A stretch of 63,436 bases of DNA, counting the filler, from Octopus bimaculoides (lineage: Eukaryota): NCBI RefSeq assembly GCF_001194135.2. It is 9 parts of 9 records of this genome, joined end to end, with 100 filler letters (N's around TTAATTAATTAA, not from the genome) between each part and the next. Parts side by side here need not be neighbours in the genome. Positions count along the whole stretch, not along the records: positions 1 to 5,362 come from NC_068983.1; positions 5,463 to 35,014 come from NC_068993.1; positions 35,115 to 36,633 come from NW_026407859.1; positions 36,734 to 47,714 come from NC_068986.1; positions 47,815 to 56,027 come from NC_068991.1; 4 more parts are not named here. One strand, written 5' to 3'. The position numbers were made by a program, and so were the translations under genes. Positions 3,074 to 55,385 of the stretch are shown one piece after another. The notes beneath the pieces were generated by a model. It had not been told where the DNA came from. It made no database searches and saw only the letters and a program-made list of their open reading frames with translations. Position 1 is the first letter of the stretch, and each line of letters opens with the position of its first letter.

Positions 3074-3324
3074 GAGTAATACGCATATGTTAAATGAATT
3101 CTTTTATTTCCAACATATGTATCCAAGATTATAAATGATTCCTTCCAAAGGATTAGGTGACGTTGATAAAGACATTTTAGCCGTTTAAGCTGGTTCCTTT
3201 GTATTTCCCTGAAGAGGAGATTACATCTTTATCAACATCACCTATTCCTTTGGAAGGAACCATTTGTAATCTTCTAAACATATGTTGGAAATAAAAGAAT
3301 TCATTTAACATATGCGTATTACTC
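3074..3324. mobile_element. Fold-back element A (about 99 bp arms) with a truncated hammerhead core in the spacer
   Basis: 3074-3172 is the near reverse complement of 3226-3324. CTGAAGA-GGAGATTACATCT (3209-3228) abuts the right arm. Confidence 0.8.
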
Positions 3325-3339
3325 TCTTCTACTCTTTTA

Positions 3340-3731
3340 CTCTTTTACTAGTTTCAGTCATTTGACTGCGGTCATGCTGGAGCACCGCCTTTAGTCGAGC
3401 AAATCGACCCCAGAACTTATTCTTTGTAAGCCTAGTACTTATTCTATCGGTCTCTTTGTGCCGAACCGCTAAATTATGGGGACGTAAACACACCAGCATC
3501 GGTTGTCACGCAATGGTGTGGGGACAAACACAGACACACAAGCATACATACATACATATATATATATATATATATATATATATATATATACATATATACG
3601 ACGGGCTTCTTTCAGTTTCCGTCTACCAAATCCACTCACAAGGTTTTGTTCGGCCCGAGGCTATAGTAGAAGGCACTTGCCCAAAGTTCTACGCAGTGGG
3701 AATGAACCCGGAACGATGTGGTTGGTAAGCA
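3340..3731 (-). mobile_element. tRNA-derived SINE family A, near full length, with internal (TA)n
   Basis: It shares body and tail blocks ('cagtcatttgactgcggtcatgctggagcaccgcc', 'cttctttcagtttccgtctaccaaatccactcacaagg') with many copies in this window. The tRNA-like head lies at 3690-3731. Confidence 0.85.
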
Positions 3732-3803
3732 GGGAAAATGTACTTGAAGATGTGGACAAGAACTATATTATTAAAATAATTTCATGCTCGACAAAACGAG
3801 AGA

Positions 3804-3840
3804 GTTGTTAACTTTCGATCATAGCTCTTCGTCAGAAACA
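3804..3840 (-). ncRNA. Degenerate minimal hammerhead ribozyme remnant
   Basis: The minus strand reads CTGACGA-AGAGCTATGATC-GAAA-GTTA. Stem II has a mismatch and stems I and III are imperfect. Confidence 0.35.
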
Positions 3841-51880: not shown

Positions 51881-53797
51881 AATATGTATTGTTTGAATTT
51901 CTTTTGAATTAGGAAATATATGTATGTTCACAGGGTTTGTAAACGAGAGCAAAGCTACAGGAAAGCAAAAGACGAATGATCACGATAATCAGTCAGCTAC
52001 CCTAGCGTAGTCATTATTACTCCCCAATGTAAGATTCCTCACCATACAGGTGACAGACACAGCTGTAAGATGCATTACGAATCTATAGCAATTGGAAGGG
52101 CATGACCCAATTGAAATAACAACGTGTGACATTTGGAGTAAAGGGAAATGAAAGTGTTACCTCTGGAGTTTGCAAATGACCACTATACCGATAGGTAACT
52201 GTGCAGAAAAAAATTTACAATCAATAAATGTTTTAGAACAACCAGTCACTCATCTGGGAAGGCCTTGAAATCAATGTTACCAACTGGGGACTATGTGTGA
52301 CCCAGTGATAATAAAAAGACTCAAAGGAGGTGTGCAGCAAAATAATTTTACTCAACAATTTGCAAGTGAATCACTGGAGGCAAAGATGCGTCTCATTTTC
52401 TTGACAATTTATGCACCACATTGCAGAAATCAGAATGTAAGTATATCAAAAAGGATAGTCTTACACTGTTGTACCGTTGAATTACAAATAATGCTCATCT
52501 GTTATGTTCAGGTGACCCTATAGCTTCCAATGGTAGAACTGTATTCGTCTTTGCTTAGAAAAAATGACTAAATTGTAGGTGTCAAGTCCCCATGAAGGGG
52601 TCTTTGTAACTTCTAAAAAGAAATTTAAGAAATATTACTTTATTTGTGTGTAATATGAATGGTTAAAATTTCATCAACATCAAAAAGATATGAATTTCCT
52701 TGGGGATTATGGCTGTTATGCATAGAATATAATTTCCAAATTTCATAAAGATCCATTCAGTACTTTTGACGTAGTTTTGGATAAAAAAACAAATGACTAA
52801 TGTGTGTGTGTGTGTGCATGTGTATGTGTGTGTGTATGGGTGTATATATGTATAGATATATGTATACATGCATATATGTGTACATATTACATGTACATCT
52901 ATATATATACATTTACACAAATGTATACATATACATGTATGCATTTAGATCTATATCTATATAATAATATTAGGGACAAAATCCAAAATTACAGGTAAAA
53001 ACTCAATTAAAATCAATTTATAAAAAATTAAAATTAAATTGAGCTTTACAGATTAAAATATATATAAATATATAGTTTTAGGGAAAAGAACCAAGTTTCA
53101 TGAACTCATTGATGAAAATCCACTACCACATATAGAAAAATTAATAATTAAAAGCACAATAAATTAGTATAATATAATACAAAGTAAATATCATAAGATA
53201 AAGATAATATAATGACTACGTGTTTCATAACTAATTTTCAAATAGAAAGGAAATTTAAATCGATTAAAATCAATTAAAATTATNNNNNNNNNNNNNNNNN
53301 NNNNNNNNNNNNNNNNNNNNNNNNNNNNNNNNNNNNNNNNNNNNNNNNNNNNNNNNNNNNNNNNNNNNNNNNNNNNNNNNNNNNNNATCAACCAACAATA
53401 AGTACCAAATGAATTTATATAAAATACTTATTTTATAAAGATACAGAAAAATTATTAAAAATATCAAAATATCAAAATAATAAACATTCCATAATCATCC
53501 CTTCATCCATTATAATATATGCTAACATGTATATTATATACAAAAACCAGCTTACATAAATTATTATCGTTTTAAATACAATTTGAACGAAGTTTAAGGT
53601 TAAAATAATAATAAAGATAAAATTAGTACATATTTAACCGGTGTAATAGTTAAAGCTATACTATTTAAAACTAAAAACGTTTATTTAATTATCATTAAAA
53701 ATCAATTGAATAATAGAAAAATACAAGAATACTTATTTCTACAAACGTAGAAATAAAAATAAAAATAAAAATATGAATGAAAAAAATGATGGACATG

Positions 53798-53895
53798 GTG
53801 CTATTTCAGGATGGAAAGCCAGTGGCATTCTATAGCTGAACATTTCAAAAAGTCGAGAGAAACCAATCAGCCATAAAAAAGAAGCTGCACTATAT
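53798..53895 (+). pseudogene. Ty3/Gypsy RNase H remnant
   Basis: VLFQDGKPVAFYS*TFQKVERNQSAI(fs)KEAA matches the Gypsy RNase H consensus 'VL.Q.G.PVAF.SR.L...ERNYS.IEKEA'. Confidence 0.7.
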
Positions 53896-55169
53896 TGGAA
53901 TGCTGCTGATGCTGGCAACATTTTATAACTGCCATACCCTCAACTACCATTCTAACTGACCAGAAATAGGTGGCTTTTTTTGTTCAATCAGAAGTCTTTC
54001 AACCAATGACCACGTTTACTTTTCATAGAGCCTCTAAATTCAAATCTAATCTGTCATTGTTCTTAACCAACCCTAGTTAACATTTTTACATCAAAATCAT
54101 CTAACTTGAAGAGGCAATTCACCTACAGAGAAGGTTAAATTATTGGAAACTTTCTCACCCAATTTCTCACAGATACAGTTTAACAATAGCCACATCACTA
54201 GTTTCAACTCGTGATCTGACTTACCTAGATTCACCATCAGAAAAGGTACTCAGTTGTTCTCAGACACTCCTGTTTGACCAAAAAGTTCTGACTGGATGCA
54301 ATACTGTCAAGGTATACAACAAGAAACACTTATGTCATCACCAGCAGAACCAACATCTGACCAAAGTGAGAAAATTCTATATTTGCCATTACAATCTGGG
54401 TCTACAACCAAGAAAGTGAAACCAGATAACACACACAAACTTAGAATTCTCACAAACAATCCTGTAACAATCAGCTCAGATTAAGTAGTGAGAAGGCCTT
54501 TGCTTGGTGATTACATACTAAAACTTCTAATGCAGCAGAGAAGACTGTTGTGACTGTGTTTCTAATCCATCATTCACTGCAGTCCTGTACTTCATTCATT
54601 TCTGTATCACTTCCTTCCACATTATGTAAGTTTCTTAACTCAAGCCTGCATGTTCTTAAAATTGAATAAAATAATAGTTGCTACATAATAATCCAAATAT
54701 TCAACCAACATGTGTTATGAGAAAAATTTGACTCACCCATAGCTGCAGCAATAGCAGGCAGTGGTAAATCATAGTGGAAAAAAATAAAAGATAATAGTAA
54801 GAAATCTATATAACTTCTGTGGCTGGGCATCAACAGTACAGGGTATTCTTTCAGCTGGTTTCGTACCTAACAATAAAATGAAATCTACTTGAGTTTGTCA
54901 AAAGTTGAAACAACTGAAAATTAAATAAGGCTATTCATAATTAAAAGCAATGAGAAAGTTAAAATTTGATCATAAAGCTTTTTAACCCCCTTTAAAAATC
55001 CAAAGATTTAAAATTATTCAGTCAACATTAAGATTATTTATGCACTTAGGAATCATGAGTAATTCTAAACAGATCTTCTGGTAAGAAATTTATGCTTTAT
55101 AAAGGAAATATTGATATTAGTAAATATTTCCAGTTGCAGCCAATGAATTTAATGTAAAAGTGTATGGAA

Positions 55170-55385
55170 TGTTTTTTTAAAACTTTTACTTGCTAGATTA
55201 TTTACATTATTTACATTTGACGGATATTTGTCCTCATCTTGTTTGTTGTTAACACAACGTTTCGGCTGATATACCCTCCAGCCTTCATCAGGTGTCTTGG
55301 GGAAATTTCGAACCTGCGTCTCATTCCTAAGGTATTTTTCACTGTTGTTGTTGTTATTATTATTATTATTATTCAGGTTACTGCC
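55170..55385 (-). mobile_element. Short hammerhead-bearing interspersed repeat with (AAT)n spacer
   Basis: Non-coding, about 200 bp, surrounding the hammerhead at 55251-55296. It abuts an RTE fragment. Confidence 0.55.
55251..55296 (-). ncRNA. Minimal type-I hammerhead ribozyme
   Basis: The minus strand reads GACAC-CTGATGA-A-GGCTGG-AGGGTATA-TCAGCC-GAA-ACGT-T-GTGTT. Stem I has 5 bp, stem II has 6 bp, stem III is the palindrome ACGU, and the site is GUU. Confidence 0.8.

Follow-up and report, generated by a model that had tools for sequence, protein, structure and literature searches.

Minimal hammerhead motifs and head-to-head fold-backs in Octopus bimaculoides DNA: probable short 3' ends of Penelope-like retroelement families

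A stretch of Octopus bimaculoides DNA of 63,436 nucleotides (nt) from assembly GCF_001194135.2 (the whole stretch is referred to here as the window) carries minimal hammerhead ribozyme motifs and long inverted repeats, or fold-backs. These are probably the short 3' ends of several high-copy octopus families left by Penelope-like retroelements (PLEs), each long fold-back being one head-to-head, 5'-truncated insertion. Directly seen are the motifs, the head-to-head geometry of fold-backs 31873, 32305 and 6602 (features are named by window position), a high copy number, a truncation gradient, two 3' ends and, in one family, variable breakpoints. The sequence is made up of nine scaffolds joined by eight artificial 100-nt spacers (44 N, a 12-mer, 44 N), and the hammerhead and fold-back set lies on five of these scaffolds; the system described as window-wide in the initial annotation therefore reflects genome-wide repeat content rather than one locus.

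The seven fold-backs reported initially are all present, with arms of 33–151 nt and 85–100% identity, and eight local inverted loci were recovered at E<1e-8, against none in each of 30 shuffles. The seven are as follows (no strand applies):

3075..3323, fold-back 3074: arms about 100–116 nt, 89% identical; the 53-nt loop holds half core 3209 (+)
6602..6924, fold-back 6602: arms 151 nt, 86%; head-to-head, with a decayed half core in each arm
7936..8143, fold-back 7937: arms 90 nt, 93%; adjoins (TA)n; no hammerhead by the relaxed scan described below
31873..32233, fold-back 31873: arms 111 nt, 95%; hammerhead in the loop
32305..32428, fold-back 32305: arms 46 nt, 85%; two truncated 3' ends of a second family, head-to-head; no hammerhead left
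43000..43074, fold-back 43004: arms 33 nt, 94%; tail-to-tail, a short snap-back directly 3' of the 43078 hammerhead
46989..47250, fold-back 46989: arms 101 nt, 100%; left end lost in an N gap

An inverted, 5'-truncated copy joined head-to-head is found at 31873, 32305 and 6602 and at 20 other distinct joints. The elements do not each have a different sequence, as had been proposed: 6602 and 34141 belong to one family, 16581-16660 matches 43368-43447, and one element comprises both fold-back 46989 and motif 47481. Fold-backs are also present at 21687-21858, 22791-22864 and 51237-51283 (arms of 66, 23 and 19 nt), where no hammerhead was found. Two inverted repeats without a hammerhead, which we take to be Helitron- or MITE-like (MITE, miniature inverted-repeat transposable element), lie at 470-693, where 31-nt arms flank telomere-like ACCCTAA repeats, and at 35871-36451, where diverged 83-nt arms flank 418 nt.

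Hammerheads were sought with a type-I descriptor allowing an extra nucleotide after position 9, with 60 local dinucleotide shuffles as control. It returned three motifs (16538+, 43116- and 55291-; shuffle mean 0.017), all three with a palindromic stem III. A stricter descriptor gave no match in the window because it disallows the extra nucleotide, and descriptors for type II and type III hammerheads also matched nowhere in the window. Nine matches came from a relaxed scan permitting up to two core mismatches (mean 1.06 in 300 shuffles), six of them with a stem II of at least 3 bp (shuffle mean 0.19), a density of six to seven hammerhead-like motifs per 43 kb of non-microsatellite DNA. Rfam reported no hammerhead in local scans or among the 150 of 329 whole-window matches listed, its matches being limited to microsatellites or hairpins resembling miRNA models. 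The motifs and one related copy are:

55250..55296 (core 55291), minus: intact canonical minimal hammerhead with an extra A after position 9, G10.1-C11.1 and a CG stem III; solo, with no adjoining fold-back
43078..43122 (core 43116), minus: near-intact minimal hammerhead with a perfect core, a CCCGGG stem III and a C.A mismatch at the base of stem II
32044..32086 (core 32080), minus: complete type-I minimal hammerhead with a U3-A8 covariant core and a palindromic CUAG stem III, located in the loop of fold-back 31873, with cleavage predicted between 32050 and 32049
16533..16569 (core 16538), plus: minimal hammerhead with core CUGUUGA (A6U), without a fold-back, ~95 nt from the element 3' end at (TA)n
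43368..43447, plus: last 80 nt of the 16533 element as a 5'-truncated copy, 100% identical to 16581-16660
42945..42992 (core 42988), minus: decayed hammerhead of another family, with two core mismatches, a 7-bp stem II and a CAGCUG stem III
3801..3842 (3835), minus: decayed hammerhead with CUGACGA intact and stems damaged, both halves being kept (by eye)

The initial annotation had counted four complete hammerheads. Of these, 55251 is intact and 43078 nearly so, but 16533 carries A6U, and 47481 (47481-47536, core 47487) is decayed and not complete because it has U3.G8 and a stem II that is out of register, with 2 bp in register. Motifs 32080(-), 42988(-) and 2206(-)/2356(-) were absent from that list. 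Three truncated cores had been named as well: at 3835(-) both halves survive although decayed, at 6720/34141 comparison within the window shows one family sharing a half core, and 3209(+) is followed by a possible stem II (by eye), but lone CTGANGA occurs 27 times in complex DNA against 19 expected, a count near chance, and lone half cores are weak evidence. Self-cleavage by the motifs is predicted, and under the PLE interpretation most copies here would be decaying passengers.

The element holding the intact hammerhead (55200-55395) follows an (AAT)n/(AAC)n run, has a short repeated unit, rich in A/T, at its far end and abuts, on the opposite strand, a fragment of an RTE-like second open reading frame (ORF2). 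Judging by this arrangement it could be SINE-like (SINE, short interspersed element) or a tail linked to a long interspersed element (LINE) instead of a plain pseudo-long terminal repeat (pLTR).

The fold-back at 31873 provides the closest view of how such an insertion is built. Genomic contigs of two species and two RNA runs were aligned to 31866-32440 at 80% likeness; 4573 and 5158 contigs aligned, with a summed depth of 1e4-1e6 compared with 28-62 for a single contig. Summed depth, though no copy number, suggests thousands of copies of the 31873 family. The fold-back divides into two copies:

31873..32122, minus: principal copy of 250 nt, truncated on the 5' side, from a PLE-like family of high copy number; its 3' end adjoins (TA)n; depth gradient
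32123..32290, plus: inverted 5'-truncated partner copy; arm up to 32233, followed by a ~57-nt tail

Depth is about 886k and 862k in the two species at 31966-85 and declines to 14k and 32k at 32106-25, where the junction lies; together with the loose ends of contigs this gradient gives the family a fixed 3' end and a variable 5' truncation. The tail (32234-32290) is present only on the plus-strand copy, the minus-strand copy stopping at 31873, and depth is high up to 32285. Other copies of the family have loose (TA)n ends at 32234 and at 32295, which indicates two termination sites and thus a tail on one arm.

In total 71 joints were counted in the 31873 family, and in the 20 that were viewed (15 of the 71 listed, and five in another table) the breakpoints all differ. 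Each of the 15 listed joints is represented by one contig, at a depth of 57-121 and often with filler letters, and most connect an antisense to a sense copy with a position pair that differs each time. The differing breakpoints indicate that the family inserts as repeated one-off inversions, not as a fixed mobile hairpin. At the joint 31949-32014, seen in a single contig, the filler of one inverted copy is telomere-like (TTAGGG). Majority changes at 32062 and 32073 in the contigs of the two species leave stem II of the 32080 hammerhead paired, and no change at its two core positions is among the 40 of 163 changes listed, so that U3-A8 is probably the family state. The second family, at 32305, reaches a depth of about 20k at 32386-32405 and has an upstream continuation common to its copies, with loose ends at 32373/32383.

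RNA from the same region derives from other, dispersed copies: 449 and 383 reads aligned in the two runs, none at 99% identity or above, with the strands about equal. In neither run do molecule ends pile up at the predicted cut, the sole pile being six molecules at 31874. Editing was assessed from the substitution counts; places with A>G/T>C numbered 21/19 and 20/20, compared with 26/19 and 24/18 for C>T/G>A, giving no A>G excess in the two runs, in a blunt test where differences between copies dominate the counts and may mask editing. Among the 15 of 71 joints listed for 31866-32440, the region covered by the contigs and by ordinary RNA-seq, none goes back on itself. The proposal that the hairpins act as sources of circular RNA, small interfering RNA or ADAR substrates found no support in the two RNA-seq runs, blunt as this test is.

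A third family, at 6602 and 34141, is recognized from a solo copy:

34043..34182, minus: solo member of the 6602 family with (TA)n at its end; half core 34141

Both outer ends of the 6602 fold-back align with the (TA)n-flanked 3' end of this copy, and the fold-back is therefore two 3' ends joined head-to-head. In the solo copy CUGAUGA lies 22 nt downstream of GAAA. A closely similar layout is given in the PMC8557442 supplement for Naiad_Obim and Naiad_Ovul, in which GAAA is 23 nt upstream of CUGAUGA at the element end, a feature labelled 'HHR_half_core'; PLEs of the Naiad and Hydra families are reported there for Octopus. The 6602/34141 family shares with the Octopus Naiads the (TA)n target, a T-rich upstream stretch, GAAA followed by CUGAUGA some 100 nt short of the 3' end, and a half core in the 3' region without a canonical hammerhead. 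Unlike them it has no open reading frame (ORF), and the motifs searched gave no sequence match to published cephalopod Naiad ends; the resemblance is one of layout. Two other assignments of this family were rejected, namely a type II or III hammerhead, as those descriptors gave no such fold, and a twister, for which Rfam had no match at E<=10 on 34040-34480 and 6600-6800 and a crude P1/P2 descriptor was empty window-wide.

The hammerheads themselves, proposed to be of the minimal Penelope type, do have the core traits of that class. Published minimal PLE hammerheads have a stem III that is palindromic, take an additional nucleotide behind position 9 and include a U3-A8 variant; they are very diverse even in a single genome, and most occur as lone motifs in PLEs that are truncated (PMC4209133). 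As in those described by Cervera and De la Pena (2014, PMC4209133), the octopus motifs are type I with a short stem I and a palindromic 15.2-16.2/loop 3, include the extra nucleotide between 9 and 10.1 and the U3-A8 variant, and form many families of mostly single motifs; they differ in having no linked ORF and in that several carry core mutations (A6U, C3U alone). The insertions also have counterparts. Endonuclease-bearing (EN+) PLEs insert as partial tandems, prefer (TA)n sites and bear a tail on one side, with an inverted copy lacking its 5' part next to them (PMC8557442); head-to-head inversions are the most frequent and are read as self-priming (PMC3846280), and the tail is the stretch between two start sites of the reverse transcriptase (RT), with cleavage in AT-rich DNA (PMC11167929). 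The octopus fold-backs are like these in their 5' truncation, head-to-head inverted copy, tail at one end, partial tandems and probable (TA)n targets, the last seen as flanks at 16660, 34040, 47700, 7936 and 31866 and in loose contig ends. They are unlike them in that both copies are so short that the insert becomes a MITE-sized hairpin, and in their tail of about 57 nt. Where a 3' end can be read, the minimal type-I hammerheads lie 55-180 nt from it.

These similarities suggest a route by which the fold-backs could form. A PLE protein with RT and GIY-YIG domains, acting in cis or in trans, would nick AT-rich or (TA)n DNA, and reverse transcription would begin at one of two close sites on the RNA, leaving a tail on only one arm. 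Synthesis would halt early and be joined to a second short copy in the opposite orientation, by template switching or self-priming. With the hammerhead 55-180 nt from the 3' end and copies from tens to about 250 nt long, the axis would often fall near the ribozyme without being caused by it, and cleavage by the parent element's minimal hammerhead would be weak, involving a dimer or assistance from a protein. We infer the enzymatic steps, the extension to 3074, 7937 and 46989, and also the PLE partner, the last because no RT or GIY-YIG frame was found.

Several observations count against a PLE origin. There is no readable target-site duplication (TSD) at the fold-backs, and no Pfam match to RT or GIY-YIG among 150 of the 152 frames of at least 55 aa, the copies being too short to hold an ORF; three-frame translation around nine motifs showed no convincing ORF start. 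No autonomous element sharing the ends was found and two metagenome pattern scans were empty, while six short motifs compared with the PMC8557442 supplement matched no cephalopod consensus in the part available, where line breaks could hide matches. The ~57-nt tail exceeds the 30-40 bp usually reported for PLEs, and the short, tail-to-tail 43004 hairpin has to be explained by a snap-back of its own. Contig depth, being summed, does not give copy number, joints at 80% likeness may be misplaced, and the outside data cover two families only (31873 and 32305).

Three loci with a more complex arrangement bear on the alternatives. At 43 kb, motifs 43116 and 42988 are on the same strand and differ in sequence; about 135 nt separate their predicted cuts, and a rod-like hairpin lies between the two. 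In the fold predicted for the RNA that the 43078 motif would release, the rod begins at the first base past the cut (z about -10), and its final 9 bp pair imperfectly and may belong to the neighbouring element. The stretch 42945-43122 may be a chimeric insertion. The other two are:

47118..47700, plus: non-coding unit of 553 nt with a 30-nt terminal redundancy, ending in (TA)n and holding the decayed hammerhead 47481-47536
2144..2483, minus: 150-bp tandem, 2.3 copies, 93% identical, each unit showing a hammerhead-like fold whose core has two mismatches

Fold-back 46989 repeats part of the 47118-47700 unit on its right, in inverted and rearranged form. The cores at 2206(-) and 2356(-) have the identical two mismatches in both tandem units, and 2144-2483 may be a dead retrozyme-like array or a chance match, 0.19 such matches being expected per shuffle.

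It is extremely unlikely that MITEs, DNA transposons of the foldback type or artefacts of replication or assembly account for the fold-backs, with the hammerheads nearby by accident, even with the presumed MITE- or Helitron-like repeats at 470-693 and 35871-36451 in the same DNA. An assembly artefact is possible at 46989, where the arms are 100% identical and adjoin an N gap, but the arms of the other six fold-backs are 85-95% identical, marking them as aged and not artefactual. Neither a TSD nor a fixed pair of terminal inverted repeats (TIRs) accompanies the family copies, and their solo 3' ends and variable axes contradict a MITE or foldback transposon for 31873, 32305 and 6602; the original derivation of the fold-backs from partial, inverted pLTR-like ends, not from DNA-transposon TIRs, agrees with these same traits. 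A different possibility is that fold-back formation is coupled to the ribozyme, the end of the self-cleaved RNA halting or self-priming reverse transcription, so that hairpins mark cleavage in vivo. Of the six complete or near-complete motifs, three have a fold-back no more than 100 bp away (a zone that takes in 8.1% of complex DNA; P=0.009) and four have one no more than 300 bp away (P=0.004). The predicted enrichment at fold-backs is borne out relative to an even spread in the window, but two of these motifs share one hairpin and the counts are not independent; the enrichment follows from geometry, since copies measure just tens to about 250 nt and the hammerhead is 55-180 nt away from their 3' end. 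Two breakpoints of the 31873 family lie 6 nt from the cut site. The 20 left-hand breakpoints, however, span 31911-32125, reaching 138 nt downstream of the cleavage site and 76 nt upstream of it (16 of the 20 were tabulated against it), with 2/20 at most 10 nt from the cut, near the expectation for an even spread over the 215-nt range; the cut site therefore does not set the inversion axis, and the single coupled system originally envisaged, with the ribozyme making the hairpins, is not supported in this family. Moreover, 16533 and 55251 lack a fold-back and 7937 and 32305 a hammerhead, the RNA has no pile of ends at the cut, and hammerhead mutants of an anole PLE left in vitro insertion unaffected, the ribozyme being protein-assisted and dispensable there (PMC11167929). 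With its predicted rod starting just past the cut, 43004 is one suggestive case for a ribozyme-driven fold-back; the imperfect last 9 bp of the rod and the breakpoint data are contrary, and ribozyme coupling is very improbable.

The elements might otherwise be non-long-terminal-repeat (non-LTR) retrozymes, i.e. non-coding units freed by two hammerheads, circularized and reinserted by PLEs at more than unit length. Retrozymes are argued to be non-autonomous PLE derivatives (bioRxiv 10.64898/2026.07.22.740005), and so this explanation overlaps with a PLE origin; it fits two decayed spots, 2144-2483 and 47118-47700, and no other locus. Like animal non-LTR retrozymes (PMC7229834, bioRxiv 10.64898/2026.07.22.740005), these are non-coding units of 150-550 nt with a type-I hammerhead, in tandem or terminally redundant, and the two 43-kb motifs with their cuts about 135 nt apart on one strand point in the same direction. 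By working definition, a retrozyme has two intact hammerheads in consecutive units (bioRxiv 10.64898/2026.07.22.740005), and no locus here has them: the 2144-2483 cores each have two mismatches, 47118-47700 amounts to 1.05 units with a single decayed motif, and the 43-kb motifs differ from each other in sequence. The two spots are further unlike animal retrozymes in that their motifs are of the minimal PLE type, not canonical. As stated above, the joints listed for 31866-32440 include none that goes back on itself. Retrozymes are thus a very unlikely explanation for the set as a whole, and short PLE-derived 3' ends remain the preferred one.

The window as a whole is animal DNA rich in microsatellites, with an N content of 11%, and its construction is as follows:

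1-5362, 5463-35014, 35115-36633, 36734-47714, 47815-56027 and four others: scaffold spans
5363, 35015, 36634, 47715, 56028, 57951, 60427 and 61996: spacers of 100 nt each, their 12-mer having stops in all frames

A 198-aa ORF at 35115-35708(-), probably a host exon, shares 84% identity across 93% of its length with LOC115224678, an uncharacterised protein of 1710 aa from Octopus sinensis that has a TPR Pfam annotation; this match marks the host as an octopus. Atlas look-alikes weakly hint at a STAND/AAA-type region. LINE-like coding fragments were noted by eye, with no Pfam match, at 55400-56027, 60087-60426, 39495-41649 and 48154-48849 (RTE-like, R4/Dong-like with (TAA)n, and ORF1-like). Exact duplications of 273 and 49 nt across 10-N gaps at 48999-49558 and 61180-61287 are probably assembly artefacts, and 50757-51889 consists of complex, diverged direct repeats with periods of about 270 and 89 nt and without a hammerhead.

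Our literature search, with subscription journals mostly outside its reach, found no study of octopus or cephalopod hammerhead families, and the families here may therefore be undescribed, although the kind itself is well known. A 2026 annotation of O. vulgaris lists 30 recently active Penelope families and 893 recently active unclassified SINE families, and the word ribozyme is absent from it. A broader picture, speculative and unlikely, is that octopus genomes hold many short, non-coding elements driven by PLEs, each with thousands of copies and probably annotated as unclassified SINEs or MITEs; that their hammerheads are under selection, U3-A8 being apparently fixed in one family in two species; that the very numerous one-off hairpins seeded by them are a main source of the double-stranded RNA entering the ADAR and small-RNA pathways of cephalopods; and that some, such as 43004, may record self-priming on self-cleaved RNA. 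Repeats are the main targets of A-to-I editing in animals (PMC9989829). Hairpins of the 43004 type would, if this were true, be genomic evidence of minimal-hammerhead cleavage in vivo. If the hairpins were a main ADAR substrate, or breakpoints tracked the cut, PLE biology would be tied to cephalopod RNA editing and the role of PLE hammerheads would become testable from genome data. The fold-backs described here add octopus examples to the known PLE pattern, and short hairpin repeats at (TA)n in cephalopod genomes should be checked for a PLE origin before they are labelled MITEs or SINEs.

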